A DNA stretch of 64,000 bases, from contig CAWFFN010000005.1 of NCBI GenBank assembly GCA_963815115.1, positions 1,632,001 to 1,696,000 of the forward strand. Reading direction: 5' to 3'. Both the position numbers and the translations under genes were made by a program. The notes beneath the pieces are model-generated. The model saw nothing but the letters and a program-made list of their open reading frames with translations, ran no database searches and was not told the DNA's origin. Below, in pieces: positions 3,963-50,432 of this stretch (positions are counted from its first letter, which is position 1; the number at the start of each line of letters is the position of its first letter). The stretch comes from an uncultured delta proteobacterium (lineage in GTDB: Bacteria; Desulfobacterota; Binatia; DP-6).

Positions 3963-5254
3963 GCGCGCCCGAGCCCGGCTGGCGCATCCTCCACGTCGAC
4001 CTCGGGAAGCCGCTTTGCGAGATCTCTTCGGACGGTGACCGCGCCGGCCTGCAGCTCGTGTTCTGGCTCGACGGCCTGCCCCTCGGCCGCTGCGAGGTGG
4101 CAGCGAGCGATCTGCCGCTGTCGGTGGCGACGATCGCGACCCTGGCGAGCCAGGCGGTGGCCCCCACGGTCGGCGGGCGTCTCTTCGCCGGGGACTTCGA
4201 GGCGCCGATGCCGGCGGCCGGCTCCGATGCCAGGCCGGCGCGGGACGCGGGCGCGCTCCTCGCGTGCCGGCGCCCACTCGCGGCGCTGCGAGCACGACTG
4301 GCCGGCGCCGGCGGCTCGGCGCAAACGGCCGACGTGTCGGTCGTCGTCTGCACGCGCGATCGCCCGGAGGCGCTCGCGCGCTGCCTCGAATCGTTGCGTT
4401 CGAGCCGGACGCGGCCGCGCGAGCTCCTGGTCGTCGACAACGCCTCGAGCGGCGAAGGCACGCATCGCGTGGTCGCGGGCATGCCCGGGGTGCGCTACCT
4501 CCGCGAGCCGCGTCCCGGCCTCGCCATCGCGCGCAACACCGGGGTCCGCGCGACGACCGGGGCGATCATCGCGTTCACCGACGACGACGTCGTGGTGGAT
4601 CCGGACTGGATGCCGCGCCTCGTGGGGCCATTCGCCGATCACCGGGTGATGGCCGTGACCGGCATCGTGCTGCCGGGCGAGCTCGAGAGCGCCGCGCAGC
4701 GCATGGCAGAGGATCGCATGTGGAGCTTCAACCGCGAGTTCCGGCCGCTCGTCTTCGATGCGCGGTACTTCGCGCGCATGCGAGCGCGCGGCGTTCCCGT
4801 ATGGCACATCGGCGCCGGGGCCAACATGGCCATTCGCCGCGAGGCCTTCACGCACGTCGGCCTCTTCGACGAGCGCCTCGGGGCGGGAGCTGCCGGCTGC
4901 AGCGAGGATTCCGAGCTCTGGTACCGGCTCCTGGCGGAGGGCTGGCAGTGCGTCTACGAGCCGTCCGCGGTGGTCTTCCACTACCATCGCGCGGACCCGG
5001 AGGCGCTTCGCCGGCAATGGCACGCGTACATGCGCGGCCACGTCGCCGCGCTCCTCGTCCAGTTCGCGCGCTATCGACACTGGGGCAACGTGCGTCGCAT
5101 CGTGCTGCAGCTCCCGATCTTCTACGCGGCCTGGCTGCGCGACGTGGCCCGGCGCCGGAAGATGGAAGGGCCGCTGTGGTGGGCCGCGGTGTCGGGGACG
5201 GTCGCCGGCGTCGGCTTCTACCTCCGCCATCGCAGCGCGCCACCGGTCGCATGA
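3959..5254 (+). CDS. GT2 family glycosyltransferase (paralog of the upstream gene)
   Basis: VVCTRDRP, VVDNAS, ARNTG, FTDDDV, GANMAIRR and EDSEL motifs. ATGA overlap with the upstream gene. Confidence 0.9.
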   Translation: MSAPEPGWRILHVDLGKPLCEISSDGDRAGLQLVFWLDGLPLGRCEVAASDLPLSVATIATLASQAVAPTVGGRLFAGDFEAPMPAAGSDARPARDAGALLACRRPLAALRARLAGAGGSAQTADVSVVVCTRDRPEALARCLESLRSSRTRPRELLVVDNASSGEGTHRVVAGMPGVRYLREPRPGLAIARNTGVRATTGAIIAFTDDDVVVDPDWMPRLVGPFADHRVMAVTGIVLPGELESAAQRMAEDRMWSFNREFRPLVFDARYFARMRARGVPVWHIGAGANMAIRREAFTHVGLFDERLGAGAAGCSEDSELWYRLLAEGWQCVYEPSAVVFHYHRADPEALRRQWHAYMRGHVAALLVQFARYRHWGNVRRIVLQLPIFYAAWLRDVARRRKMEGPLWWAAVSGTVAGVGFYLRHRSAPPVA

Positions 5255-6024
5255 GCGCCGATCGCGCCGTCCGGGTGTCGGGCGACGGGCGCGCCCCGCG
5301 GCGGGCGTTCCTGCGGGCCAATCCATTTCCCCATCCGCTGACGTCGGGCTTCTTCTATCGCGAGAAGATGCGCGCCATTCATCGCGTCGCCCCCGAGCGC
5401 GAGTTCGCGACCATCCTCGAGATCGGGGGCGGTCAGAGCGGCCTCACCGCGCTCCTCTACCCGCGGGCGCGGATCGTCAACCTGGACCGGGTCCGCGAGT
5501 ACGCTTCGGCGGCGCCGAATGCGCGGCCGGCGCTCAGCTTCGTCTGCGGCGACGCCACCATGCTGCCGTTCGCGCCGGCGAGCATGGATGCCGTCACCTG
5601 CTTCGACGTGCTCGAGCACGTCGGCGACGATCGGCGCGCGCTGGACGAGGCCCTGCGGGTACTCCGGCCGGGCGGCGCATTGCTGGTCAGCTCACCGAAC
5701 GAGCGCTGGCGCTTCCCGTATCATGCGGTGATGCGCGCCCTCTGTCCCGGCGAGGAGGCCATCATGAGGGAGTGGGGGCACGTGCGGCGCGGGTACGCCC
5801 TGTCCCGGCTGGACGCGATGCTGGCCCTGCCGCACGCGGGTGCCGCGTCCTTCATCACGCCGTGGACGGCGGTGTCCCACGACCTCGCGTTCTCGCGCCT
5901 GCCGGGCCCGCTGCGGACGCTCGCCTGCGCGGCCGTCGCGCCGGTCGTGTGGCTGGCCTCGCTCTTCGACGACTCGGGGCGCGGTACCGAGACCGTCGCG
6001 CTGTGGATCAAGACCGGCGGATGA
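5251..6024 (+). CDS. Class I SAM-dependent methyltransferase
   Basis: ILEIGGGQ motif I, GDATMLPF, FDVLEHV, RVLRPGG. Confidence 0.85.
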   Translation: MSADRAVRVSGDGRAPRRAFLRANPFPHPLTSGFFYREKMRAIHRVAPEREFATILEIGGGQSGLTALLYPRARIVNLDRVREYASAAPNARPALSFVCGDATMLPFAPASMDAVTCFDVLEHVGDDRRALDEALRVLRPGGALLVSSPNERWRFPYHAVMRALCPGEEAIMREWGHVRRGYALSRLDAMLALPHAGAASFITPWTAVSHDLAFSRLPGPLRTLACAAVAPVVWLASLFDDSGRGTETVALWIKTGG

Positions 6025-7355
6025 CTCCCACCCGGGCCGAGCATGGCGCACGGCCCATCCGCCGGGTCGCCCTCCTGCCGTGGGGCGACGTGATCGAGGA
6101 CTTTCTCGCTGGACTCGGGATGACGTTCTCCCAGTTCTGCGAGGAGATGACCGGGGGCTGGCTCTTCGGATACGTCGAAGCGCTGCGGCGCGCGCGCATC
6201 GAGGCGGTGATCGTCTGCGTATCGTCCGAGGTGGATGTCGTGACCCGTCGGACGCACCGGCCGACGGGTGCGCCGGTCTGCGTCCTGCCCGCACCGGCCG
6301 CCTACCGGAGGCTCCGGCGACACATGCGCGATCCCCTCGCCACGACTGCCGACGAGACGTTCGGACGGCTGCGCGTCCCGCTGCTTGCGTCCGCCTTGAA
6401 GGACGTCGCCTCGTATCTCGCGACCCCTCCGCGGCTCCTCGCGCGCGCGCTGCGCAGCGAGGGCTGCGAGGGGATCCTCTGCCAGGAGTACGAGTATCCT
6501 CGGTTCGACGTGTGCGTATCGGTCGGCCGGCTGGTCGGGTGCCCGGTCTTCGGGGTGTTCCAGGGCGGCAGCTTCCAGGTGAGCCGCCTCGAGCGTGTCG
6601 TGCGCCCGCTGGCCGTACGCGGCGCACGGGGCCTCGTCATCGGCGCCGCGGAGGAGACCGCGCGCGTCCGCGTCCGCTACGGGAGCCAGACCCCGATCGC
6701 CCGGATCGGCAATCCGCTCGATCTCGATCTCTGGCACGCCGGGGATCGCGCCGCCGCGCGGGCCGCGCTGGGGATCCCCGCAGCGGCTCGCGTGGTGGCC
6801 TGGCACGGTCGCGTCGACGTTCGCCGGAAGGGCCTCGACGTCCTCCTCGATGCCTGGCAGCGGCTGTCCGGCGAACGGCCGGAACGCGACCTCCGCCTGA
6901 TCCTCGTTGGCTCGGGGCACGACGCCGACCGCTTCCGCAGCCTGCTCGACGGGCGGGGGCCGCGCGCGGTCCACTGGCACGACGCCTACGTGCGTGATCC
7001 GTCCCTGATCCGGTGTCATCTCTCCGCCGCGGACGTCTACGTCCTGCCCTCGCGGCACGAGGGCTTCCCGGTTGCGCTGCTCGAGGCGATGGCGTGCCGG
7101 CTCCCGGTGGTCGCGACGGCGGTGGCCGGCGTCGCCGACATCCTCGGCGACGAGGCCGGCTCGGCTGGCCTCGTCGTTCCTCCCGAGCGATCGGACGCAC
7201 TCGCCGCGGCGCTGGGACGCTTCGTGGATGACGATGCGCTGGCACGGGCGGCCGGGGAGCGCGCGCGGCGGCGGGTCGAGCAGGAGTTCTCTCTGGACGT
7301 CGTCGGAGCGCGCCTGGGCGCCCTGCTGGACTCAGGGAGTCCGGGCCCGAGGTAG
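6021..7355 (+). CDS. GT4 family glycosyltransferase
   Basis: GRVDVRRKG and PSRHEGFPVALLEAMA (EX7E) motifs. ATGA overlap. Confidence 0.9.
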   Translation: MTPTRAEHGARPIRRVALLPWGDVIEDFLAGLGMTFSQFCEEMTGGWLFGYVEALRRARIEAVIVCVSSEVDVVTRRTHRPTGAPVCVLPAPAAYRRLRRHMRDPLATTADETFGRLRVPLLASALKDVASYLATPPRLLARALRSEGCEGILCQEYEYPRFDVCVSVGRLVGCPVFGVFQGGSFQVSRLERVVRPLAVRGARGLVIGAAEETARVRVRYGSQTPIARIGNPLDLDLWHAGDRAAARAALGIPAAARVVAWHGRVDVRRKGLDVLLDAWQRLSGERPERDLRLILVGSGHDADRFRSLLDGRGPRAVHWHDAYVRDPSLIRCHLSAADVYVLPSRHEGFPVALLEAMACRLPVVATAVAGVADILGDEAGSAGLVVPPERSDALAAALGRFVDDDALARAAGERARRRVEQEFSLDVVGARLGALLDSGSPGPR

Positions 7356-8912
7356 CTCCTGCGAGCCGTCCCGCCCGGTCTGGGGGTCGTCGAAGCGCAA
7401 GATGCGGATGCCGGGAAACCGGGCCACCTCCGCGCCGGCGCCCCGGGCTGCGATCGCCCGGTCGAGGTAGCCGGCGGGATCGTCCTCCCAGTCGCGGCTG
7501 AGGACGAGCCACCTCCCGGAGCCGGTCAGCGTCGCGAGGACCGTGTCCGCATCCGCGACGCTCTGCACCGGGTGGACCGGGAGCGGCTCCAGGCGCGGAG
7601 GAGCGTCGTAGTGCTCGAGCCCCTCGATCACGTAGTGGGCGCTCACCGTCACCGGGGCTCCGGCGCTCACGTGCTCGCGGAGATAGCGGGCTGCTCCACG
7701 GAGATCCTCGCGCGCGTAACGGGCGTCGAAACGATCGCGGCCGATCGAGAGCGCGGCGAGAAGGACGAGACCCGAGAGGCAGGTGATGCCATACCAGCGT
7801 GGGGCGCGGGCGAGGCCGGCCGCGGCCAGCAAGACGAAGGCAGGGAACGTTCCGAAGAGGTAGCGGACGTTGTACGCACCGTCCTTCAGCCAGGCGCCGC
7901 CGAAGGTCACCAGCGCCGGCACGAGGATCCAGAGCACGAGGTACAGCCCCCACTCGCCGAGCGACGGCAGCGCGCGTACGGCGGCCCAGGCGAGGGCCCC
8001 CCCGATCAGCAGGACGGCCGCGAAGTCTGGCCAGTAGGCTGCTGCGATCGTCGCGAGTCCCCGCTCTCGATGCAGGGTCTCGACCGGCGGTCCGAGGCCG
8101 AAGCCGCCGACGAAGGTGAACGCGGTGTACGGAACCGCGAGCCATTCGAAGGCGCGCTGGTGGCCGACGGCGGCCACCTCCCGGCCGAGCAGCCCGAAGG
8201 CGAGGGCGGCCACCGCGAGGAGAGCTCCCGCGGCGATCGCGAGCCGGCGGAGCGTGAGGCGATCGCCAAATCGCCGGAGAACGACGAACGCGGCCTGCGC
8301 CAGCACGATCGCACCGTAGAGGTAGTGGGTCAGGAGGCCGATTACCGTGACCAGAGCGTAGCCGATCCACGCGCCCGGACCGCCGTCGCGCAGCGCCCGC
8401 ACGAACAGCCACGATCCCGTCACGCTGCACGCAGCCACCAGCGCGTACATGCGGCCCTCGCGCGAGTACCACACGTGCAACGGCGCGGTCGCGAGAATGA
8501 ACGCGCCGAGCACCGCCGTGCGGCGGTCGGCGACCGCGCACCCGAGGGCGAGCAGCGCCGCCACCGTGCCGATGCCCGCGACGGCGGACACCAGGCGTCC
8601 GTTCACATCCGAATCCCGGAAGCGATCCAGCGCCTTCAAGAGGAGGCCGTAGAGCGGCGGATGTCCGTCCTGGACCGAGAGGAGAACCGGAAGAGGCCAG
8701 TGCGCGGAGTCAGCGCTGTAGATCTCGTCGGTCCACAAGCTCTGGTCGTCGAGACCGGGGAGGCGAAGGGCCGCCGCGAGCAGCAGGATCGCGACGCTGG
8801 CACCGATCAGACAGGTCCGCGTCACCCCCGCGAGTCTAGCGCGAAGGGCCGCGCGCGTGCGACCGGGCGCCGTCCGGTTCGCCCGCGCGAACGCCGCCAC
8901 GCGGACGCGCAC
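7332..8912 (-). CDS. GT-C membrane glycosyltransferase (ArnT/PMT, GT39/83-like)
   Basis: SLWTDEIYS, HPPLY and SREGRMY motifs with many TM helices. Start uncertain. Confidence 0.8.
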   Translation of the reverse strand: MRVRVAAFARANRTAPGRTRAALRARLAGVTRTCLIGASVAILLLAAALRLPGLDDQSLWTDEIYSADSAHWPLPVLLSVQDGHPPLYGLLLKALDRFRDSDVNGRLVSAVAGIGTVAALLALGCAVADRRTAVLGAFILATAPLHVWYSREGRMYALVAACSVTGSWLFVRALRDGGPGAWIGYALVTVIGLLTHYLYGAIVLAQAAFVVLRRFGDRLTLRRLAIAAGALLAVAALAFGLLGREVAAVGHQRAFEWLAVPYTAFTFVGGFGLGPPVETLHRERGLATIAAAYWPDFAAVLLIGGALAWAAVRALPSLGEWGLYLVLWILVPALVTFGGAWLKDGAYNVRYLFGTFPAFVLLAAAGLARAPRWYGITCLSGLVLLAALSIGRDRFDARYAREDLRGAARYLREHVSAGAPVTVSAHYVIEGLEHYDAPPRLEPLPVHPVQSVADADTVLATLTGSGRWLVLSRDWEDDPAGYLDRAIAARGAGAEVARFPGIRILRFDDPQTGRDGSQELPRARTP

Positions 8913-14450: not shown

Positions 14451-14574
14451 CCCGTGTAGACCCCCTCCCCGGCGAGGTAAACGCGGAAAGTGCCTTCAGG
14501 CGTTACATTTAATCGAACTCTCCGCCCCGGAAAGCCTCCCATTCCGCGGTTCCTTTGCGTTACATTCCGGGTCG

Positions 14575-16395
14575 ATGTCGGCGGAAGCCACCGGCCTCCA
14601 GGAGGAGCTGCGCTTCGAGGTCAATCGCCTGGTGGTCGACCGGACCAGGGTGGCGCTGTGGATCGGATTGACGACGGTGGTCACGTTTGCCGCCAGCAAC
14701 CACCTGTGGTCGTCCCGGCCACCCCTGTGGAGCGACGTGATGAACCTCGTCACCGCCGTGCTCATCGGCATCGCCTTCGCGGTGCTGACGCTTCCGTCGA
14801 TCCAGCGCCGGCCGGTTCCCTTCGCCCTGGTCATCTTCGCCTTCGGGTGCTGCTCCCGGGCGATCGCCGGCGTGGGCCACGGCGACGTCGCCACGACCGC
14901 CATCACCCTCGTGGCGCTGGCGCTCATCGGCGCGGCCACGATGCCCTGGGGAGTGGTGGCCCAGGTGGCCACGGCAGGAATCGCCGGAAGCGCGATCGTG
15001 ACCAACAGCTATTTCGTCACCGGCGATCTCGCCGGGCCGCCCGGGCAGGCCGCCACGGCGGTGGCGCTCGCGCTCGTGGTCTCGGTCGGGCTCGCCGTCG
15101 AGCTGCAGCGCCATCGCGTGCGCATGCTCGGCGAGATACTGCGACGCCGGCATGCCGAGGCGAGCCTGGCACAGCTCAACGCCGAGCTCGAGCATCGGGT
15201 GCAGCAACGTACCGAGCAGCTCGACGGCACCACCCGCCACCTCGCGCGCGAGGTGCAGGAGCACCAGCACGCCATCGCGGGCATGCGAGAGAGCGAGCGT
15301 CGCCTGCAGGAGGTGCTGGATCACGCCATGGTCGCGATCTATCTGCGGGATGCGGAGGGGCGCTACGTGCTGGTCAATCGCCACTGGGAGCGACGGGCCG
15401 GACGCCAGGCGGCGGACGTCGTCGGCAAGGGTGTCGAGGAGATCATGCCGCCGGAGGCAGTCGACGCGCTGAACGCGCACAATCGCCAGGTGCTCGAGTC
15501 ACGACAGCCGATGCAGTTCGAGGAGACCATCCCGCAAGCCGACGGGGTGCGCACGTGGGTGTCGGTCAAGTTCCCGCAGTTCGATGCCAACGGCGAGCCG
15601 GTCGGGGTCTGGGGAATCTCGACCGACATCACCGGGCGCAAGCGGGCCGAGGAGCAGGCGCGGCAGCATCAGGCCGAGCTGGCGCACGTGCTCCGGGTCG
15701 GGACCATCGGGGAGATGGCGGCCGGCTTTGCGCACGAGATCAATCAACCGCTCGGCGCCGTGGCCAACTACGCACAGGGTGCGGTGCTGCGGATGCGCAA
15801 CGGCACCGTGCAACCCGCGGAGCTGCTCCCGGTCCTGGAGGCGATGGCGCACGAGGCGCTCCGCGCCGGCGAGATCGTCAGGCGCATCCGGGACCTGGTG
15901 CGCAAGGAGCCCAGCGAGCAGAAGCCGTTCGACCTGAATACGCTGGTGCGCGACTCGGCCCGGATCATGGAGGGCGAGGCAGGTCAGCTCGGCATCCGGA
16001 TGCGGCTCGACCTGGCCGGGGAGCTGCCGCCGGTCGTGTGCAACGGCGTGCAGATCGAGCAGGTCATCCTGAACCTCGTGCGCAACGCGCTCGATGCCGT
16101 GCAGAGCCACGCCGACGCGGGGTGCATCGCCATCTCCAGCGCCCCGGCGGGACGCGATGCCGTCGAGGTCTCGGTGCGCGACAACGGCGTCGGCCTGCCC
16201 GAGGAGCCGGTCGACGTGTTCGCGCCGTTCTATAGCACCAAGGCGAACGGCCTGGGCATGGGCCTGTCGATCAGCCGCTCGATCATCGAGGCGCACCACG
16301 GACAGGTGTGGGCCAAGCGCAACGCGGCCGGGGGGACCACCTTCTCCTTCACGCTGCCGCTCGGGGACGGCCGCACAGAAGGGCTGCGCCCCTAG
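14575..16395 (+). CDS. Membrane PAS-domain sensor histidine kinase (FixL/TtrS-like)
   Basis: About 5 TM helices, PAS/PAC, H-box AHEINQPL, N-box NLVRNALDA, G-boxes DNGVG and GLGMGLSIS. Confidence 0.92.
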   Translation: MSAEATGLQEELRFEVNRLVVDRTRVALWIGLTTVVTFAASNHLWSSRPPLWSDVMNLVTAVLIGIAFAVLTLPSIQRRPVPFALVIFAFGCCSRAIAGVGHGDVATTAITLVALALIGAATMPWGVVAQVATAGIAGSAIVTNSYFVTGDLAGPPGQAATAVALALVVSVGLAVELQRHRVRMLGEILRRRHAEASLAQLNAELEHRVQQRTEQLDGTTRHLAREVQEHQHAIAGMRESERRLQEVLDHAMVAIYLRDAEGRYVLVNRHWERRAGRQAADVVGKGVEEIMPPEAVDALNAHNRQVLESRQPMQFEETIPQADGVRTWVSVKFPQFDANGEPVGVWGISTDITGRKRAEEQARQHQAELAHVLRVGTIGEMAAGFAHEINQPLGAVANYAQGAVLRMRNGTVQPAELLPVLEAMAHEALRAGEIVRRIRDLVRKEPSEQKPFDLNTLVRDSARIMEGEAGQLGIRMRLDLAGELPPVVCNGVQIEQVILNLVRNALDAVQSHADAGCIAISSAPAGRDAVEVSVRDNGVGLPEEPVDVFAPFYSTKANGLGMGLSISRSIIEAHHGQVWAKRNAAGGTTFSFTLPLGDGRTEGLRP

Positions 16396-16430
16396 CCAGG
16401 CGGGCTGCGCCCGCGGGCGAGGGCTACGGG

Positions 16431-19400
16431 CTACTGCTCGAGTATGGCCTGCGCGAGGCGCAGGTCGCGCAGGTCCAGGCCTTCGCTGAACGCTGCGACC
16501 AGCGGCCGGAGGAGCGCCACGGCTTCGAGGCGCCGTCCCTGCTCCGACCAGAGCCGCGCCAGGTCGGTTGCCGCTCGCAGCTCGTGCATCGAGGCGTCGA
16601 ACTCCCGCGCCAGGTCGAGCGCGCGTCGGAAGCAGGCTTCCACCTCGGCTGCTCGTGCCGCCGGGTCGGTTCCCCAGAGCAGCAGGTCGCCGCGGGTGAG
16701 GTTCAGCTGGATGAGGTGGAAGCGCTGGCTCGTGCGCTCCGCGTCGGCCATCCCCTCGGCAACGAGTGCGAGCCCTTCGGCCACGCGACCCGTCATCCCC
16801 GTTGCGTGGGCGAGCAGCGCGATGGTCCCGGGCCGGGCCACGGCCGCGCCCGTGGCCTCGTAGCCGGCGAGGGAGTCGCGCAGACGGGCGATCGCGTCGT
16901 CGGGACGCCCCTGCAGCAGGCATGCCCAGCCCTCCAGGGTGGCGCCGACGGCGCGCTGGTACGCGAAGCCCTCCTCGTCCGAGATGGCAGAGGCGCGCGC
17001 GAGATGGGTCAGGGCAGCCTCCGACTCCCACCGGAACAGGCGGACCATGGCGGCCGACAGGTGCGCGAAGGTGAGTGAGAACGGATGCCCGAGGCGCTCG
17101 GCCAGCGCGAGCCCTTCCTCGACGCTCCGCAGGGCCTGGTCGGGAAGGCCACGTGCCCACTGCACCCACCCGAGCCAGCTCCGGCACGCGACGCCGGGAT
17201 CGTAGCCGCCGTACACGGACACGTGCACGGGATGGGTGTAGGGATCGTAGAGCACGAGCGCGCGCTCGAGGTGAACCTGCGCGCGTTCGAGCTTGACCAG
17301 GTCGTACAGCGTGACGCCGTGGCCGTAGTGGGCCTGGACCTGTGCCACCAGATCGTGCGTCTTCTCGCAGAGCGCGAGCAGCTCTTCGCCGACGTCGCGC
17401 GCCCTGCGATGCTCCGCACGCACCTGGTAGAACGACACCAGACCGCGGAGCAACGGGAAGAGGTGGGGTCCGCCGGTCGTCAGGCGCGAGAGGGCGTGCG
17501 CACGCTCGAAGACGCGTTCGACCACCGGCGCGGCGTAGCCGCGCGTGGACATGAGCGGCGTGGCGAGCTTCACCTGCAGCGCCAGCTCGAGCTCGTTGCG
17601 CTCCGCCGTCTCCGGCAGGGTGGCGAGCTGGCGGAGCGCCTTCGTGAAGTGCTCGATGGCCTCGTGGTCGGCGTGGCGTGCGACGGCGTTGTCACCCGCC
17701 CGCGTGTGGTACGACATGGCCTGTCGCGTGTCGCGCGCGGCCGCGAAGTGCGCGGCGAGCTCGCCGGCGATCTCGCCGGCATGGGCGCCGAATGCGGCCA
17801 CCTTGCGCGCGGCGATGCGCCGGTGCAGCCGGACGCGCCGCGCCTCGGCCACGCGGTCGTAGAGGACGTCGCGGTAGAGCGCGTGCACGAAGCGGTAGCG
17901 GCCGCTGATGGTTCCATCGGGCCACTCCTCGACACCGGCCGCGTGGATGAAGTGTCCCTTCCACGCCAGCGCCTCGAAGCGGTCGTCGAGCGCCTCGGCG
18001 TCGCACTGGAGCGCGGTCGCCACGCCGGCGATCGAGAACTCGGAGCCCATCACGCTGGCCGCCTCGAGCGCCTGTCGATCGTCGGGAGCGAGGGTCTCGA
18101 GCTGGCGCTCGATCATCTGCCGCAGGCTGTCGGGTACGGCCGACTCCAGGGCGCCGGCCCCGCCGCGCAGCGTCCAGCGTCCCGACTCCTCGGCGAGGAA
18201 GCCCTCGCGGACCGCGAAGTCGACCACGTTGACGAGGAAGAGTGGATGCCCGTCCGTGCGCTGATGGATCAGGCGCGCCAGGTCGTCGTCGACCCGGCCC
18301 CCCAAGAGGCGGCCGCGCAGGTAGTCGCCGACGTGCGGCGGTGCGAGCGGCGCGAGCTGGATCTCCTCGCCGCAGCGGCGCGCCTGGAGCTCCTGCGCGA
18401 TCGCGCGCAGCGGCAAATCGCCGCGCTTGGCCTCGGCGGGCCTGTAGGTGCCGATCAGCAGGAGGCGCGCGGTCGTCCGTCGCTGCGCGATGTAGGCGAT
18501 CAGCTCGAGCGTGGAGTGATCGCTCCAGTGCAGGTCCTCGAGCACCAGGACCATCGGTCGCTCTGCCGTGGCCGCTTCGAGCAGCTCGGCCATCTCGCGC
18601 AGCATGCGCTCGCGGGTAGCCCCCTGCGCGCGGTTCCGCAGTGCGCCGTGCTCCGACGGATCGAGCAGGGTGGGAAGCTGGGCCAGCCAGGTCGGCGCGT
18701 GGAGGCGCAGGTGGCTCATCAGGGACTCGCCGGCGGCGGTGCGCGCGAGGTGCGTCCATGCCTCGAGCACGGGCAGGTACGCCTCGCCGATCCCGTACTG
18801 CTCGACCGACTGTCCGCGCGCGACATGGGTGCCACCGGCGGCCTGGACGCGCTCGAGGAAGGCGTCCACGAGGGTCGTCTTGCCGATCCCTGCCGGGCCG
18901 CAGATGAAGGTCACTCCGCGGGTACCCCGGCGCGCGCGATCGAGCGCCTCCTGGAGGTGCGCGAGCTCGCGCTCGCGCCCGACCACCTGCGCCGCGAGCG
19001 CCAGGACGCCCACCGCGGTGGCCTCCGCCTCCTGAGCCCGCGCCGACACCTGGACGGCGAAGCGGTACTCCCGCTCCGGGGCCGGCGCCGCCGCGAGGCG
19101 CGCTACCGGCGCCGCCTCCCCGGGCGGCAGCGGTGTGAAGGCCGGGTCGCCGTAGAGGAGATAGCTCGCCCACGTGAGCCCCTGCCGGCCGCGCTGCGCG
19201 ATGATGGCATGGCGGGCCTCGAGGAGCGCCTGGCCGAGGCTCGCGCCCGTCGCCAGGGCGCGGTAGCACATGCTGGCGAAGAGCACGCTCTCGTCGTCGT
19301 GCACGACCCAGAACGTGCCCACGTAGTTGCGCACGCCGGCCAGTAGGAACGCGCTCCCGAGCCCGAAGGCGTGACCCTCGTATCGGTAGCCTCCCTCCCA

Positions 19401-20171
19401 GGGCGGACTCGTCCCCGCCTCGCACGAGTTCGAGAACACGAGCGCCGGGGCCGGCCGCAGCTTCGAGAGGTCGCTGGCGGTGAGCATGCCCTGGGCGAGC
19501 TGCCAGCCGCTGCGCGCGGGCGTCTCGGGATCGTAGCGGCTGTGGCCCGCGAAGTGCACGACGTCGTGCTCCTGGAGCGCGGCCAGCAGCGGGATGCGGC
19601 GCACACTCTTCCCGGCGATGAGCGTGACGTCGACGGCTGGCAGGGCGTCGAGCAGGCTGCAGAGCTGCTCGGCCTCGTCCCCCGCCTGCGGCAGCGTCTC
19701 CGTCGGATCCGCCACGAGGAGCACGCGAAGGTGTCTCCCGGGCTCACGCACCGGACCGGGCTCCGGGATCCGCCCGCTCGTGATCACCTGCCGCCCCATG
19801 CGGAACTTCGTCACCAGGAAGTCGCGGCCGTCGTGGCACAGCTCCCAGGGCACGTGGACCAGGCGCTCGTCCAGGCGCAGGTAGAGGTCGGCAGGCGCCG
19901 CCTCGCGCAGGCGCAGGCGTGCGGGCTCGGTCAGGAGGTGCGAGAAGACGAGGCCGCCGACGCGCTCGAGTGCCCGGGCCGACGCCCCGGCACCGCCGCG
20001 GGCCGCCGCGGCGAGGCGAGCCGTCTCGGCGGCGAGGTCACGGAGAAAGTCGTCGTCGACGTGCGTCTCGCTGCGGGGGATCAGCGATCCCAGCTCGGCG
20101 AGGTCGACGATGTTGAGATCACCCTGACGAAGGATGGTGAGCTGGATCGGAGTGCGTGACCGGTCCGGCAC
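16431..20171 (-). CDS. CHAT (caspase-like) protease + STAND/AAA ATPase + TPR-like helical repeat protein
   Basis: CHAT motifs VPWELCHDG, VHFAGHS (His), FSNSCEAG (Cys) and YLLYGDP. Walker A GPAGIGKTT, Walker B LVLEDLHW, GHPLF. C-terminal helical repeats. Confidence 0.88.
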   Translation of the reverse strand: MPDRSRTPIQLTILRQGDLNIVDLAELGSLIPRSETHVDDDFLRDLAAETARLAAAARGGAGASARALERVGGLVFSHLLTEPARLRLREAAPADLYLRLDERLVHVPWELCHDGRDFLVTKFRMGRQVITSGRIPEPGPVREPGRHLRVLLVADPTETLPQAGDEAEQLCSLLDALPAVDVTLIAGKSVRRIPLLAALQEHDVVHFAGHSRYDPETPARSGWQLAQGMLTASDLSKLRPAPALVFSNSCEAGTSPPWEGGYRYEGHAFGLGSAFLLAGVRNYVGTFWVVHDDESVLFASMCYRALATGASLGQALLEARHAIIAQRGRQGLTWASYLLYGDPAFTPLPPGEAAPVARLAAAPAPEREYRFAVQVSARAQEAEATAVGVLALAAQVVGRERELAHLQEALDRARRGTRGVTFICGPAGIGKTTLVDAFLERVQAAGGTHVARGQSVEQYGIGEAYLPVLEAWTHLARTAAGESLMSHLRLHAPTWLAQLPTLLDPSEHGALRNRAQGATRERMLREMAELLEAATAERPMVLVLEDLHWSDHSTLELIAYIAQRRTTARLLLIGTYRPAEAKRGDLPLRAIAQELQARRCGEEIQLAPLAPPHVGDYLRGRLLGGRVDDDLARLIHQRTDGHPLFLVNVVDFAVREGFLAEESGRWTLRGGAGALESAVPDSLRQMIERQLETLAPDDRQALEAASVMGSEFSIAGVATALQCDAEALDDRFEALAWKGHFIHAAGVEEWPDGTISGRYRFVHALYRDVLYDRVAEARRVRLHRRIAARKVAAFGAHAGEIAGELAAHFAAARDTRQAMSYHTRAGDNAVARHADHEAIEHFTKALRQLATLPETAERNELELALQVKLATPLMSTRGYAAPVVERVFERAHALSRLTTGGPHLFPLLRGLVSFYQVRAEHRRARDVGEELLALCEKTHDLVAQVQAHYGHGVTLYDLVKLERAQVHLERALVLYDPYTHPVHVSVYGGYDPGVACRSWLGWVQWARGLPDQALRSVEEGLALAERLGHPFSLTFAHLSAAMVRLFRWESEAALTHLARASAISDEEGFAYQRAVGATLEGWACLLQGRPDDAIARLRDSLAGYEATGAAVARPGTIALLAHATGMTGRVAEGLALVAEGMADAERTSQRFHLIQLNLTRGDLLLWGTDPAARAAEVEACFRRALDLAREFDASMHELRAATDLARLWSEQGRRLEAVALLRPLVAAFSEGLDLRDLRLAQAILEQ

Positions 20172-20232
20172 GGGCCCGGGGCAGGTCTATCAGGCGCCCC
20201 CGGGCGTCGAAAGGGCGTGGCCCGCTCCCCGA

Positions 20233-21063
20233 CTATGGCCGCAGATCGAGCCGGAAGCTCGTCCCGATCCCCGGGCAGGCGATCTCGTAGACCCCGGGCT
20301 CGAGGTGCGGCATGGCGAGGGCGCCCGCAGCGTCGGTGCGTGCCGAGTAGATCGAGCGGCCATGCCGCCGCAGGACGACACGCTGTCCGCCGAGCGCGTC
20401 GTCGTTGCTTCCCAGCAGCGTGAGAGTGAGACCGACGGCCTCGCCCTCGGCGACGACGGTGGCGCGGATCTGCGCCTCCGGGGCGAGGATGCGGAAGCTG
20501 ATCGCGTCCGTGCGGTCTCCCGTTCGACGCGCGACGGCTGCGCGGGCGACCTCTTCGACCCCGACCACCGGCGCCACGACGTGGCGTTCCAGGAGCACCA
20601 GCCCCGCGCGTGCGACCCGGATCGCCAGCGTGGTGAGGGACTCCTCGGCCGGTGGCGCGGGCCAGCGCGAGGCCACGCGGGCCTGGAGGGTGGCCGGGAC
20701 GGCCAGCGCGGGTCCCGCATCCAGCTTCGTCATCAAGCGGGCTGCCCCGATCGCCTCCTCGAGGCAGACGTCGCAGCCCGCGAGGTGACCGTCGATGGGG
20801 CGCATCTCGTCGGGAGGCAGGGCGCGTGCAGCCCATCCCGCCAGGCGGTCGGGCGCGAGACAGTCCGCGCCCGGTGCCCCGGTCGATACCCGCGGGCGCG
20901 CCGCCATCGCCGCGCGGCCGGCCGCCGTCGCCCGCTCGAGCCGCTCGAGCCAGGCCTGGCACGTATCGCAGGTGTCCACGTGAGGCCGGATCGACGCCGC
21001 CTCGGTGGCGGCCAGCTCCCCGTCGAGCAGCTGGGAGAGGAGCATGAGATCGGGGCAGCTCAC
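20233..21063 (-). CDS. Cytoplasmic zinc-finger (zf-HC2/ZAS) anti-sigma-like protein with two HxxxCxxC motifs and a C-terminal beta-sandwich domain
   Basis: CPD...HVDTCDTC and CLAPD...HLAGCDVC. The GTG start overlaps the sigma-factor stop. No TM helix. Confidence 0.75.
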   Translation of the reverse strand: MSCPDLMLLSQLLDGELAATEAASIRPHVDTCDTCQAWLERLERATAAGRAAMAARPRVSTGAPGADCLAPDRLAGWAARALPPDEMRPIDGHLAGCDVCLEEAIGAARLMTKLDAGPALAVPATLQARVASRWPAPPAEESLTTLAIRVARAGLVLLERHVVAPVVGVEEVARAAVARRTGDRTDAISFRILAPEAQIRATVVAEGEAVGLTLTLLGSNDDALGGQRVVLRRHGRSIYSARTDAAGALAMPHLEPGVYEIACPGIGTSFRLDLRP

Positions 21064-21998
21064 GGCTTTGCCTCCGCCGGCTTCCACCGTTGCTCCAGGC
21101 GCTGACGCAGCCGGAAGATACGCGAGCACACGGTACCGACCGGGGAGTTCAGCAGACGCGCAATGTCCTTGTACGGCGTGGTCATCTTGAACTCCCGAAT
21201 CTCGTCGAGGAGCCCCTCACGCTGGCGCATGCGCTTTGCGAGCGCATGTTCGAGATCGCCCCGGCGTTCGACGAGTCGCCGTGCCGTGGCCGAATTGTGG
21301 TTTGACCCTATGAGACGCAATCGCTCGTTCGTTTCTTGCAGCTCGCGCTGGCGAAGCACGATCCACCCCCAAACCGAGTCCAGATCGTCGCGCAGCCGGG
21401 TCAGCTTGACGTCGCGTCCGCGCAGCCCGGCCTCCACCTCGGCGAGGAGCGCGGCGGTGTCCGGGAGGGATCGCCCCGACAGCCGGGAGAGCAGGCGGAT
21501 GTCGTCGGACGTGAGCTGGTACTCCAGCAGCGAGAGGAGCTTCAGATCGAGCTGCTCCTCGGGGTCGAGCGTTGCCCAGACGGTGGCAATCCCGTCGGCG
21601 GCGGGGGCCACAGCGGTCTCCTCGCGGGTCCCGGGATCGGAAGCGGACCCGTCGTCCGCTCCGAGGTGGCGGTCGCTCAGCGAGACCGTATCGAGCTCGC
21701 GGTTTCGCCGCTGCCACTCGAGAAAGAGGCTGCGCAGGACGTAGTAGCCGAGGAAGGTGCGGAACTGGATGCCGTTCCGCCCTTCGAACGTCCGCATGCG
21801 GGTGAATATCCGGTCGCGCTCGAAGACGTAGACGTAGAAATCGACCGCTCGCTCGGTCGGCACGCCGTAGATCTTGACCGGGAAGTTGTAGATGTCCTCG
21901 CCGTAGCGCTCCTGGAACGCGCGGCGCGCCGCGGCATCCGCGTCGGCGCAGGCGCGAACGAGATCGCGGACGTCGTCGGGGTCGATCCGGCGGCGCAT
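21060..21998 (-). CDS. ECF-type sigma-70 factor with a long helical insertion
   Basis: Region 2-like LVRAC..D..A...F..RY...IY...FRTFL and region 4 HTH YKDIARLLNSPVGTVCSRIFRLRQRL. Confidence 0.8.
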   Translation of the reverse strand: MRRRIDPDDVRDLVRACADADAAARRAFQERYGEDIYNFPVKIYGVPTERAVDFYVYVFERDRIFTRMRTFEGRNGIQFRTFLGYYVLRSLFLEWQRRNRELDTVSLSDRHLGADDGSASDPGTREETAVAPAADGIATVWATLDPEEQLDLKLLSLLEYQLTSDDIRLLSRLSGRSLPDTAALLAEVEAGLRGRDVKLTRLRDDLDSVWGWIVLRQRELQETNERLRLIGSNHNSATARRLVERRGDLEHALAKRMRQREGLLDEIREFKMTTPYKDIARLLNSPVGTVCSRIFRLRQRLEQRWKPAEAKP

Positions 21999-22010
21999 GG
22001 CTCCCGAGTA

Positions 22011-22532
22011 TCACGGGGCTCGGCGGGTGTCTGCCGTCTCGGGGAGCGGACCCTCGCGGCCGGCGCGCGCCGCCCGGATGCCCTTGTCGATCGCCGACTG
22101 CATGAAGCGATCGTTGTCCTTCGAGATGAATCGATGGACCCGGCGCTCGAGCAGTGCGCGGAGGATCGGGTTGAAGGCCTCGTACGTCTCGCGGAAGTGG
22201 ACGCGCGTGCGGCCGTCGCCGAGGTCCTCCAGGCGGGTCCAGCCCGTGGCGCGCGACCACAGCGGCTTGCCGATGGCGTCGTAACGCCAGGACTCGCACG
22301 GCCTCACCTCGGTGAGCCACTCCCACGACCGTCCGATCCCGCCGGAGAGGAGATAGCGCGGGACGGGAAAGTGGCAGTGACGGATGCGGCCTTCCCCCGT
22401 GTCGTCACCCCAGTGGAGATACTCGATCCGTACGTCGCCGTGCTGGACGATGCGGTTGCGGTGTCCCCAGAAGAGCGCCCAGATCTCGCGTGGGGTGGCG
22501 GAGACCACGAACGAGAAGGAGTGGTCCTGCAT
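22011..22532 (-). CDS. SRPBCC/polyketide cyclase-like ligand-binding protein
   Basis: F.V.ATPREIWALF...EVRP..SWRY...TRVHFRETY pattern with a C-terminal helix. Confidence 0.65.
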   Translation of the reverse strand: MQDHSFSFVVSATPREIWALFWGHRNRIVQHGDVRIEYLHWGDDTGEGRIRHCHFPVPRYLLSGGIGRSWEWLTEVRPCESWRYDAIGKPLWSRATGWTRLEDLGDGRTRVHFRETYEAFNPILRALLERRVHRFISKDNDRFMQSAIDKGIRAARAGREGPLPETADTRRAP

Positions 22533-22611
22533 CGCCCCCGAGCTTTGAACGGCCGCGCGCATGCTGTCCAGCGCATTGACCCGGCACGCGACGGGCTCCT
22601 AGAAGAGACGG

Positions 22612-24373
<1,762 letters not shown>

Positions 24374-24376
24374 GCC

Positions 24377-25774
24377 ATGACGACGATCTACCGCGACGAC
24401 CAGGGCGACCTCGCCATGCTGCGCGACCGGCGCGTGGCGGTGGTGGGATACGGCAACCAGGGGCGCTCCTGGGCGCTCAACCTGCGTGACTCGGGCTGCG
24501 ACGTCGGCGTGTACGTACGCGACGACGCGACGCGCGGGCGCGCCCTGGCCGACGGCTTCTCGATCGGCGAGGTCGAGGAGGCGAGCGCCGCCCCGGTGGT
24601 CTGCGTGCTGGTGCCCGACGACGTGATCCCGAGGCTGCCGCTGGTCCGCCCCGACGACGGCCTCACCATCGTGGCGAGCGGGTACTCGCTGGCGTTCGGC
24701 GGCTTCGCGCCCGCCGGCGACGTGGGTCTGATCGCGCCGCGCATGCTGGGGCCGGAGGTGCGCCGGTGCTACGTGGAGGGCGGCGGGTTCATCACGGCGC
24801 TCGGCGTGCACGAGGATCGTACCGGGCACGCCCTGGAGCGCGTCCTCGCGGTCGCCAAGGCGATCGGCGGGCTGCGCCAGGGGGCGATCGAGATGACGCC
24901 GCACCAGGAGGCACTCCTCGATCTCGCCGTCGAGCAGGCCCTGTCGCCGATCCTGACGCATGCCAGTGGGGCATTCGTCATGGCGCTCCTCGAGCGCGGC
25001 ATCCCGATCGAAGCCATCCTCACCGAGCTCTATCTGTCGGGCGAGGTCGAGCGGAACTACCGGCTCCTGCGCGAGGAGGGATTCGTGCGCCAGCTCGACT
25101 ACCACTCGCCGACCAGCCAGTACGGCCAGCTGTCGCGGCGCGGCGCGTTCGATCACCTCGACGTGCTGTCGCGCATGCGCGATCTGATGGACGACATCGC
25201 TTCGGGTCGCTTCGCCGCCGAGTGGGACGCCGAGAGCCGGGCCGGCCACCCGCGACTGGCGGAGCTCCGAGCCCTGCACGCCGGTCCGGGAGCGCGGGAG
25301 TTCGAGGACTCGGTGCGCCGGTCGCTCGGCCTGACCGCGGCTGCTCCGTCCGCGCTGCGCGACCGCCGCGAGGCAGTCGTCCGCGAGCACATGGAGTCGG
25401 AGAACCGCCAGGACTTCGCCGCCACCCTCGCGACGTTCGCGCACCCGCGCTACGAGATCGTGCCCACGGACCAGGTGTTCGACGGCGCGGAGGCCGTACG
25501 GCAGTACTACGCGGCGTCACGGGCGGCGTTCCCGGACCAGCGCAACGAGCTGCGCACCCTCCGGCACGCCGACGACGCGGTGATCGTCGAGTTCGATCTG
25601 CTCGGCACGCATCGCGGGACGTTCCTCGGTACACCGCCGACGGGTCGCGACTTCCGCTGCCCGATGGTCGCGCTCTTCGTCTTCGAGAACGGCGGCGATC
25701 GCCTCACCTGCGAGCGGGTCTACTTCGACGCCGCCACCGTCCTGCGCCAGCTCGGTCTCGCCGCCACCCCCTAA
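24377..25774 (+). CDS. Ketol-acid reductoisomerase (IlvC)-like protein fused to a C-terminal SnoaL-like/ester cyclase domain
   Basis: VVGYGNQG...ALNLRDSG, IAPRMLG, EALLDLAVEQ, SPTSQYG. C-terminal HMESEN...AAFPDQRNE...GTHRG...PPTGR...ERVYFD. Confidence 0.8.
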   Translation: MTTIYRDDQGDLAMLRDRRVAVVGYGNQGRSWALNLRDSGCDVGVYVRDDATRGRALADGFSIGEVEEASAAPVVCVLVPDDVIPRLPLVRPDDGLTIVASGYSLAFGGFAPAGDVGLIAPRMLGPEVRRCYVEGGGFITALGVHEDRTGHALERVLAVAKAIGGLRQGAIEMTPHQEALLDLAVEQALSPILTHASGAFVMALLERGIPIEAILTELYLSGEVERNYRLLREEGFVRQLDYHSPTSQYGQLSRRGAFDHLDVLSRMRDLMDDIASGRFAAEWDAESRAGHPRLAELRALHAGPGAREFEDSVRRSLGLTAAAPSALRDRREAVVREHMESENRQDFAATLATFAHPRYEIVPTDQVFDGAEAVRQYYAASRAAFPDQRNELRTLRHADDAVIVEFDLLGTHRGTFLGTPPTGRDFRCPMVALFVFENGGDRLTCERVYFDAATVLRQLGLAATP

Positions 25775-50254: not shown

Positions 50255-50432
50255 TGAATCGACCTGCGCGCTCGTCTGTGCGCGGGACTATCGCCAATCG
50301 GAACGGATCGTGTCCAGAGGGTAGCGCGCGGGGCTGGCAGTGGGGTGCTTGGAATCGTTCCCCGCGACCTTCCGGGCCGCGCGCCAGCCTGCTGGCCTCC
50401 AGGCGCCATGGAGCTCGACGGCATCCATCCAG

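Follow-up and report, generated by a model that had tools for sequence, protein, structure and literature searches.

We analysed a 64,000-nucleotide (nt) stretch of DNA from an uncultured delta proteobacterium (Desulfobacterota, Binatia, DP-6; assembly GCA_963815115.1, contig CAWFFN010000005.1, positions 1,632,001–1,696,000), called the window below, and in it a locus of three genes that follow one another on the minus strand. The first encodes a sigma factor of 312 amino acids (aa; 21060–21998), the second a soluble anti-sigma factor of 276 aa (20233–21063) and the third a protein of 1246 aa (16431–20171) in which a CHAT caspase-like domain is joined to an AAA_16 NTPase of the STAND type and to a helical-repeat region. 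The TGA stop of the sigma gene (21062–21060) overlaps the GTG start of the anti-sigma gene (21063–21061) as GTGA, and 61 nt separate the anti-sigma gene from the CHAT/STAND gene. The common orientation, the positions of the open reading frames (ORFs) and the overlap were as given in the initial annotation of this DNA. The longest ORF of the anti-sigma (20233–21129) was rejected as too long; the start at 21063 agrees with all homologues. The G+C content of the window is about 72%, and a consensus scan of the region 16000–23000 returned no promoter-like and no terminator-like site.

Genome contigs were searched for relatives with the sigma alignment; 34 pattern matches were obtained and 20 loci confirmed (numbered with the letter L). 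L020, with a partial sigma4-like match of 152 aa, was left out of the counts, the other 19 being near-full-length sigma relatives, and L013 and L015 end at or just past the sigma/anti-sigma pair, leaving 17 loci with readable flanks. A CHAT gene adjoins the pair in 13 of these 17 informative loci (L001–L010, L012, L014 and L019). At L011, the contig edge shows the 3' end of a STAND-TPR gene, on the upstream side as in L012. A divergently transcribed gene for a Peptidase_C14 caspase and one for an anti-sigma with zf-HC2 and SH3 domains and a membrane anchor are found at both L017 and L018, and at L016 genes for a transmembrane (TM) protein and a Peptidase_M48 lie beside the sigma gene. With CHAT, C14, M48 or the end of a STAND-TPR gene in all 17, a peptidase gene stands beside the sigma gene at every informative locus. 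The 4-nt overlap of sigma and anti-sigma genes was present in 12 of the 15 loci in which both were called. The flanks vary between loci, which argues that the triad is the conserved unit; the three-gene operon of the initial annotation held up in this comparison, and recurs in the Leptospira record described below. Pairwise identities of the three proteins were correlated (Spearman 0.87–0.92 over 66 non-independent pairs from 12 loci). Fifteen entries, three of them the contigs of L005, L006 and L010, are apparently common to the homologue lists of sigma and CHAT, an indirect comparison made by reading of tables. The +1 protein of L016 was considered as an anti-sigma and rejected: it reached a probability of 9% against the anti-sigma profile and is a TM protein without an HxxxCxxC motif.

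Several of these loci show peculiarities of their own. The contigs of L009 and L011 are titled as Klebsiella pneumoniae and Enterobacteriaceae metagenome-assembled genomes and bear the Binatia-type triad, the coordinates and layout of L009 being the same as those of the "Deltaproteobacteria" contigs L007 and L008; both are likely mis-binned or mislabelled. In L009 and L010, the gene directly after the CHAT gene encodes an SH3-domain protein. L010 holds a second caspase-fold gene (14480–16441, plus strand; Peptidase_C14 fused to an FGE-sulfatase domain), which is separated from the CHAT-TPR gene upstream of it by about 2.3 kb. L004 alone has a gene for a Trypsin_2 and PDZ (HtrA/DegP-like) protease (14729–16531, plus strand), some 1.3 kb downstream of its CHAT-STAND gene.

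The CHAT domain of the 1246-aa protein covers residues 79–342 (19146–19937, on the minus strand like all features of the triad given below; PF12770, 107.6 bits, E-value 1.1e-30). The His motif HFAGHS is found at residue 206 (19539–19556) and the Cys motif FSNSC at residue 246 (19422–19436), and neither the His nor the Cys varies in any of the 13 domains aligned. The Pfam domain together with the His-Cys dyad places the protein among the CHAT peptidases of clan CD, with a predicted endopeptidase activity. The AAA_16 domain follows at residues 395–573 (18453–18989; PF13191, 100.3 bits, 2.2e-28), with a Walker A motif, GPAGIGKT, at residue 425 (18876–18899) and a Walker B motif, VLVLEDLHW, at residue 541 (18525–18551). 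The C-terminal helical-repeat region (16434–17834), which is TPR/MalT-like and presumed to be the sensor, matched TPR_12, TPR_1, TPR_2 and TPR_4 below their curated cut-offs. The model TIGR03903, built on kinase/cyclase-STAND fusions, aligned with residues 393–1206 at 255 bits, below its own cut-off, and homologues of the protein carry PF13424 and PF17874 (TPR_MalT). A P-loop NTPase with both Walker motifs followed by helical repeats is the layout of a STAND protein. The intact dyad and its fusion to a P-loop ATPase and helical repeats, both read in the initial annotation, were confirmed. Both Walker motifs are intact in the window protein and in each of the seven STAND-type orthologues examined; orthologues of 1229–1245 aa are found in L002–L006 and L014. 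In L012, the CHAT-STAND-TPR gene (4115–7920, plus strand) lies upstream of the sigma gene, not downstream, and is interrupted by either a frameshift or an assembly error, Walker A lying in the first of the two resulting ORFs and Walker B in the other. The hydropathy maximum of the window protein was 1.36, which by this crude measure indicates no TM-like segment. A comparison of the CHAT profile with PDB sequences returned a spurious match to CLN8 only.

The first 380 residues of the CHAT protein match 198 proteins. Among the best 120 of these 198, identity over this part is 51–83% and the C-termini differ: AAA_16 is present in 44, SnoaL_3 in 23, a class III cyclase domain in 18 and a protein kinase domain in 7, and most of the rest have TPRs only. 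The same variation is found beside the sigma gene, where AAA_16 and repeats come after CHAT in the window, L002–L006, L012 and L014, and TPRs with no NTPase in L009, L010 and L019. In the TPR-only and SnoaL_3 forms, a TM-like segment comes right after CHAT (at residue 408 in the homologue P0171, 410 in P0148 and 416 in P0156); CHAT would be cytoplasmic in these forms and the variable part would lie outside the cytoplasm. Sigma, anti-sigma and CHAT thus form the conserved core, and the STAND-TPR part is one of several interchangeable modules. The initial annotation had described an NLR/apoptosome-like sensor-protease: the STAND/TPR fusion is indeed present, but as an exchangeable C-terminal module and not as a conserved element of the system. 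The exchange reaches the peptidase itself. The last 320 residues or so of the C14 protein of L018 are shared with the CHAT-SnoaL_3 protein P0148 (34% identity, E-value 2e-51), and hhalign gave no meaningful match of the C14 domain of L018 to the CHAT profile, so that at this level the two protease domains are not detectably of one family. On a shared module, still next to a sigma of this family, one caspase-fold peptidase has been exchanged for another. This swap of C14 for CHAT is our strongest comparative argument, as it suggests that the locus requires a peptidase activity.

The anti-sigma factor matched zf-HC2 (PF13490, 42.9 bits) in two stretches, and the RsrA model TIGR03988 at 2.7e-8, below its cut-off. 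The AlphaFold2 (AF2) model (pLDDT 78.5) is composed of two three-helix units (residues 6–54 and 71–116), two linker helices of lower confidence, a loop containing R180 (173–186) and a confident beta-sandwich (187–274). Two homologue alignments were used, A2 with 16 sequences and A4 with 14. The first zinc motif of the ZAS type, H28-x3-C32-x2-C35 (20959–20982) with C3 upstream (21055–21057), is present in 13 of the 16 aligned anti-sigmas; it is missing in L019, L017 and L018, and L014 has no upstream Cys. In the second, H93-x3-C97-x2-C100 (20764–20787) with C68 upstream, the H93, C97 and C100 residues are found in 16 of 16 and C68 in at least 90%. HxxxCxxC with an upstream Cys, here in two copies, and the helical fold of the anti-sigma domain are the marks of ZAS class I, and the top Foldseek match was the anti-sigma ChrR (2q1z_D, E-value 2.5e-3, probability 0.97). 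The Kyte-Doolittle maximum over 19 residues was 1.27, compared to 1.93 in the membrane-anchored relative of L018, and on this crude heuristic there is no TM-like segment. The protein is thus a double-ZAS anti-sigma without a TM helix, as had been annotated. The gene overlap and what is known of the family suggest that it binds and inhibits the sigma factor.

The remainder of the anti-sigma is of a different nature. The strands of the C-terminal beta-sandwich (20242–20505) are modelled with a pLDDT of 86–94, and the fold has Ig-like and macroglobulin (MG)-like Foldseek matches. The CarboxypepD_reg domain (PF13620) was precomputed on four anti-sigma homologues, with a weak match in L019, and the ESM Atlas gave, as leads, clusters from Spirochaetota, Armatimonadota and Verrucomicrobiota at 0.90–0.91 for the C-terminal part. 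Just before the sandwich, A178-x-R180 (20524–20532) lies in a poorly ordered loop (model pLDDT about 61–66). R180 is found in 14 of 14 sequences of A4 and 16 of 16 of A2 and is the sole invariant residue of a variable stretch, with neighbouring columns conserved at 0.29–0.57. From this pattern, the R180 loop may be a candidate cleavage or recognition site.

The initial annotation had let the CHAT protein act on the anti-sigma, and a contact between the two was indeed predicted. The complex of CHAT residues 1–400 (alignment A3) with the anti-sigma (A2) was modelled together with three controls: the interface score ipSAE was 0.70, 0.72 and 0.70, whereas no control exceeded 0.00. At least 64% of the contacts were common to the runs, and the partners had a pLDDT of at least 76. 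The ipSAE mark is reached by 116 of 157 solved complexes and by 2 of 215 mismatched pairs, a calibration that is rough here, since our own alignments were used. In the model, the CHAT edge strand DVTLIAG (residues 181–187; 19611–19631) pairs with the anti-sigma strand 236–242 (RSIYSAR), the contacts of lowest error being 184–240, 184–239 and 183–240 (CHAT residue first). On the anti-sigma side, the interface comprises residues 228, 236–242 and 252–255. In the CHAT strand, V182, T183 and L184 are conserved in at least 92% and G187 is invariant; the interface as a whole holds the invariant residues R228, S240, D175 and G187. These predictions support a docking of the C-terminal beta-sandwich of the anti-sigma onto the CHAT edge strand.

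The sigma factor matched the sigma-70/ECF (extracytoplasmic function) superfamily model TIGR02937 with 45.9 bits (cut-off 42.9) and the Pfam domain Sigma70_r4_2 with 23.2 bits, slightly below the cut-off of 25.7. In the AF2 model (pLDDT 78.8, pTM 0.50), a helical sigma2-like part (residues ~7–103) is followed by a disordered variable stretch (101–134), three short helices (~133–174), a long helical hairpin (178–268) and the sigma4 helix-turn-helix (HTH; 276–305). The insertion between sigma2 and the HTH thus measures about 130 aa, of which the disordered stretch takes 34 and the hairpin about 90. It is conserved family-wide, the conservation in a 21-sequence alignment running through the long sigma2–HTH region. 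The best Foldseek matches corresponded to sigmaE region 2 (4lup_C, TMt 0.64, probability 1.00; 2map, TMt 0.68), with weak E-values of 0.2–0.6, and sequence-profile matches in the PDB covered sigma4 only, in chains of the sigma-H/AlgU type (E-value 2e-5). Among 8000 scored candidates, 343 homologues were found at E ≤ 0.001, conserved over the full length; the best 120 of these share 56–90% identity over nearly the full length, and two are named Candidatus Binatia. The nearest ESM Atlas clusters, which serve as a lead, lie in Candidatus Binatota. Against 1.84 billion cluster representatives, the family profile matched 288 at E ≤ 0.001, a number that falls to 163 at 1e-10 and to 68 at 1e-30; proteins matched over the full length measure about 295–335 aa. 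Two overlong representatives, P0290 (696 aa) and P0343 (516 aa), each match half of the sigma profile, the N-terminus of P0290 corresponding to positions 142–311, and may be fused or mis-called forms. With only 288 matches among 1.84 billion representatives, this is a small, divergent family of "long" ECF-like sigmas, and the protein is a non-standard ECF. Its designation as an ECF sigma in the initial annotation holds for the sigma2 and sigma4 domains, but not for the compact two-domain build with a short linker that is standard in the group.

Upstream of the sigma gene, a sigma-70-like element, TTGATC/TTGTCA-N17-18-TAGC, was seen by eye in L003 (at about 7826–7853), L004, L006, L014 and L015. 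The exact pattern TTGATC-N18-TAGC matched L003 and L004 only, and a looser pattern matched none. In L014 and L015, the element ends 6 nt before the predicted GTG start, and the transcript would be leaderless there if this element is the promoter.

A distant relative of the triad came from a tblastn search of the sigma factor against 72,556 plasmid records, which gave a single match, Leptospira interrogans pLiSL25. The record (L022; NZ_CP092665.1, 38478–53281) is labelled as a 109-kb plasmid, and carries dnaE, gatB and thiD, so that its content looks chromosomal. The gene order is that of the window: a long-type sigma (28% identity, covering 89% of the query), a +1 protein of 242 aa and a stand-alone CHAT of 403 aa. 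The CHAT protein has the motifs HYSGHL and FSNSC, is 30% identical (E-value 7e-44) and has no sensor domain; its ORF is intact (8739–9950 in L022) and is missing from the PLSDB gene table. The +1 protein is without any HxxxCxxC motif, and its hhalign match to the anti-sigma profile (probability 80.6%, E-value 1.3e-5) covers the linker helix, the Arg loop (APSMRS) and the beta-sandwich. The conserved core of the +1 protein thus consists of linker, Arg loop and sandwich, and neither the zinc motif nor the sensor domain is indispensable. The anti-sigma itself had no match in the 72,556 plasmids. The plasmid matches of CHAT were generic; one of them, Streptomyces H12, is a TIR/MoxR/CHAT-TPR locus without a sigma gene, and hence no example of the actinobacterial ECF54 group discussed below.

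We propose that the locus is a protease-triggered transcription switch in which the CHAT protease cuts the anti-sigma and frees the sigma factor, a reading to which we assign a probability of about 0.5. In this model, the N-terminal zinc-finger helical bundles of the anti-sigma would hold sigma inactive, as family knowledge suggests, while the beta-sandwich would serve as a handle, docking by strand pairing on the CHAT edge strand as predicted above. A cytoplasmic cue bound by the repeats could drive nucleotide-dependent oligomerisation of the MalT-like STAND part and so switch the protease on. The tethered anti-sigma would then be cut in the flexible R180 loop, between the sigma-binding half and the handle. 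As in the schemes for RseA and Csx30, housekeeping proteases would degrade what is left, and sigma would be free to bind RNA polymerase. In sister lineages, the same core is wired to membrane-anchored TPR or SnoaL modules, to a cyclase or a kinase, or to no input module at all; further out, a C14 caspase takes the place of CHAT and an SH3 domain that of the handle.

A number of observations weigh against this model, in which everything past the gene content is a prediction. The predicted contact is an exosite and not the active site, so that the docking argues for tethering and not for cleavage as such, and would fit a non-catalytic partnership equally well. The CHAT side of the interface is no better conserved than the rest of the domain (0.79 vs. 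0.78), and the anti-sigma side merely modestly more so (0.73 vs. 0.64). The correlated identities of the three proteins show co-inheritance only, as would be seen for any linked genes, and no common ECF-type motif was found in the upstream regions of the 19 loci, hence no target promoter. The sensor-less CHAT of Leptospira means that sensor-driven activation cannot be general. Finally, Arg as the P1 residue is a guess drawn from separase and from the specificity of metacaspases, and known CHAT proteases cut after Leu or Met. Separase does cut after Arg and is controlled by a bound inhibitor, securin (PMC11506125), and the CHAT protease of Runella cuts after L247 (bioRxiv 10.1101/2021.06.07.447441).

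Some of these points would be equally well explained if no cleavage took place. CHAT could act as an anti-anti-sigma or scaffold on the beta-sandwich, or the anti-sigma could be a securin-like inhibitor of CHAT, whose true substrates would then be other proteins; sigma would be freed by sequestration. An edge-strand exosite outside the catalytic cleft, the separase precedent with its bound securin (PMC11506125) and a Leptospira CHAT devoid of any sensor all agree with such a scheme. We nevertheless consider it rather unlikely, as the His/Cys dyad is kept in 13 of 13 domains and in Leptospira, and CHAT was exchanged for another caspase-fold peptidase, C14, and not for a non-enzymatic binder. 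Alternatively, the anti-sigma could be a thiol/zinc redox switch like RsrA, with the CHAT-STAND gene merely co-transcribed as an output of sigma, for instance a stress-induced protease. The two HxxxCxxC motifs and the sub-cut-off match to the RsrA model (2.7e-8) are in keeping with this, as is the lack of a terminator-like site between the genes. However, the triad persists with a single motif in L019 and without any zinc motif in the Leptospira +1 protein, the anti-sigma is predicted to dock on CHAT, and to our knowledge most ZAS proteins are not redox sensors, which makes a redox switch improbable. Chance adjacency of unrelated genes is hardly credible at all, given that the gene order is the same in loci whose sigma identity ranges between 80% and 28% and which bear three phylum-level labels, that one caspase-fold protease substitutes for another at the same position and that CHAT and anti-sigma are predicted to dock.

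The initial annotation had placed the proposed switch in a defence or stress circuit. An Avs/NLR-like anti-phage system, in which the STAND-TPR part senses a phage protein and CHAT frees sigma for defence genes, would agree with the architecture, which resembles that of STAND defence proteins and of gasdermin-associated proteases (bioRxiv 10.1101/2021.06.07.447441), and the precedents of craspase and DdvA are linked to defence (PMC10028731, PMC11506125). The surroundings of the locus point the other way. PADLOC matched none of five proteins, no short-spaced direct repeat family of the kind that forms a CRISPR array was found in the 64-kb window, and the window ORFs scanned with Pfam contained no cas or other recognised defence domain. 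Metabolic or envelope genes flank the triad in the window and in 10 loci, where 37 flank ORFs showed no recognised defence domain (with crude ORF calling, and 16 of the 37 without a Pfam match at 1e-5). The conservation is high and tracks the lineage, and the plasmid collection gave no anti-sigma match and a sole sigma match in a chromosome-like record. The defence assignment thus has no support here; we regard an anti-phage role as even less probable than a redox switch, and the protease-triggered switch as likely to serve a lineage-conserved stress or environmental response.

Upstream of the sigma gene, a gene for an SRPBCC (Polyketide_cyc2-like) protein (22011–22562, minus strand; Pfam 2.9e-5, under the cut-off) ends 12 nt before the sigma start and is possibly co-transcribed with it. 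It is found directly upstream of sigma in L002 only, and elsewhere on the contig in L001; it is no conserved part of the module of sigma, anti-sigma and CHAT. The other genes of the window encode a formate dehydrogenase, a PAS histidine kinase, an amidohydrolase, a ketol-acid reductoisomerase (KARI), glycosyltransferases, STT3 and a giant DUF11 protein. The Amidohydro_3 gene (22612–24373, plus strand) appears to be split over two overlapping frames, the ORF 22612–23355 covering profile positions 2–144 and the ORF 23093–24373 positions 177–471, through either a frameshift (pseudogene) or a sequence error. The next gene (24377–25774, plus strand) encodes a KARI_N and KARI_C protein with a C-terminal SnoaL-like domain, an unusual fusion. 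The giant ORF of 2934 aa (41483–50287, minus strand), presumably a surface protein, contains 19 DUF11 repeats in addition to DUF7507, CARDB-like and MG10-like domains, and is shadowed by many antisense ORFs of high GC at third codon positions (GC3).

Regulated proteolysis of anti-sigma factors is known mainly from membrane cascades (DegS/RseP) and, recently, from CRISPR-linked proteases, and CalpL/CalpT/CalpS is a further precedent. In craspase, Csx29, a TPR-CHAT protease, cleaves Csx30, the inhibitor of CASP-sigma; it has been proposed that this cut lifts the inhibition and that the remnant is degraded afterwards (PMC10028731). As in the present locus, a CHAT protease gene lies beside the genes of a sigma inhibitor and an ECF-type sigma. 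Unlike craspase, the window has neither Cas7-11 nor a CRISPR array, and the proposed trigger is the STAND or another fused module and not a target RNA. The inhibitor here is a ZAS-type anti-sigma with a beta-sandwich in which no similarity to Csx30 was seen, and the sigma has a large insertion. DdvA of Myxococcus xanthus is itself a TPR-CHAT anti-sigma, and cleavage by CHAT was proposed as the first step that frees its ECF sigma, DdvS (PMC11506125). A zinc three-helix anti-sigma domain of the CHCC type is coupled to CHAT in both cases. DdvA carries its TPR-CHAT part within the anti-sigma, in the periplasm, with RseP acting subsequently, and controls a CBASS/CRISPR island (PMC11506125). Such a combination of ZAS domain, TM segment and periplasmic TPR-CHAT in one polypeptide was not found here, where the protease is separate and cytoplasmic, a dedicated beta-sandwich is predicted to make the contact and the anti-sigma is without a TM segment.

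The closest resemblance in gene context is to the actinobacterial ECF54 group, in which genes for a carboxypeptidase-regulatory-like +1 protein, a subtilase and CHAT(-TPR) proteins lie near the ECF gene, proteolytic control has been proposed and the group is said to be without an anti-sigma (PMC7826278, PMC8999054). The known likeness (ECF gene, carboxypeptidase-regulatory-like +1 protein, CHAT genes) lies in the gene context. ECF54 is actinobacterial and subtilase-linked, and the sigma here has the 130-aa insertion. Control of a sigma factor by proteolysis through a neighbouring CHAT protein, as put forward in the initial annotation, is thus not a wholly new idea (PMC7826278, PMC8999054). Literature searches found no account of this module of Binatia and Leptospira, nor of a ZAS anti-sigma encoded next to a STAND-fused CHAT, nor of sandwich-CHAT docking (Huang et al. 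2015 and the rest of the ECF supplement may bear on this), and none of Binatota with a sigma factor or of Leptospira with an ECF and a CHAT domain. It is possible, and we put this forward tentatively as a less probable extension of the switch itself, that a general CRISPR-independent pathway leads from caspase to sigma. In it, a constant CHAT would sit on the sandwich handle, the cut would fall in the PAxR loop and interchangeable inputs would converge on the long sigma, as a core regulator in Binatia and Leptospira. The pathway would be continuous with the ECF54 context, whose +1 protein would be an overlooked anti-sigma, and perhaps with craspase/Csx30. If correct, this would represent a distinct way to activate a sigma factor, through a cytoplasmic caspase-like protease with plug-in sensors that is tethered to the anti-sigma. 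It would provide a physiological substrate for many orphan bacterial CHAT-STAND proteins and an explanation for the ECF54 gene context. Since one relative comes from a cultured genus, Leptospira, and the parts are small, the hypothesis lends itself to direct tests, and a docking handle with a cleavable loop might furnish a compact protease-gated transcription switch for synthetic biology.

The other comparisons concern single aspects of the module. The C-domain of ChrR is a cupin and not an Ig-like sandwich. Like the present protein, however, ChrR of the ChrR/SigE pair of Rhodobacter sphaeroides (2q1z) is a soluble two-domain anti-sigma, with an N-terminal zinc anti-sigma domain (ASD) and a signal-receiving beta-rich C-domain; unlike it, ChrR has a single ASD and no dedicated caspase-like protease gene beside it. 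In the gasdermin systems, CHAT and C14 proteases fused to NACHT, TPR, LRR or WD40 cleave the product of a neighbouring gasdermin gene (bioRxiv 10.1101/2021.06.07.447441). They share with the present locus the sensor-fused caspase-like protease beside a substrate gene and the interchangeability of CHAT and C14; their substrate is a pore-forming gasdermin that kills the cell, whereas the neighbour here is a transcription inhibitor. The EACC2-caspase systems, put forward from comparative genomics, are caspase/ECF neighbourhoods with DUF1822 TPR genes, and resemble the present locus in the constant caspase domain, the variable C-terminal sensory domains and the ECF sigma gene (PMC8195603). They differ in that EACC2 and TRADD-N were not reported in our Pfam scans (both may lack Pfam models), and in that the accessible part of their description has no ZAS anti-sigma. 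The gating of a sigma factor by a caspase-like protease therefore has precedents, and the module described here, with its long sigma, its sandwich-bearing anti-sigma and its constant CHAT, is a more specific arrangement than the initial annotation could see.

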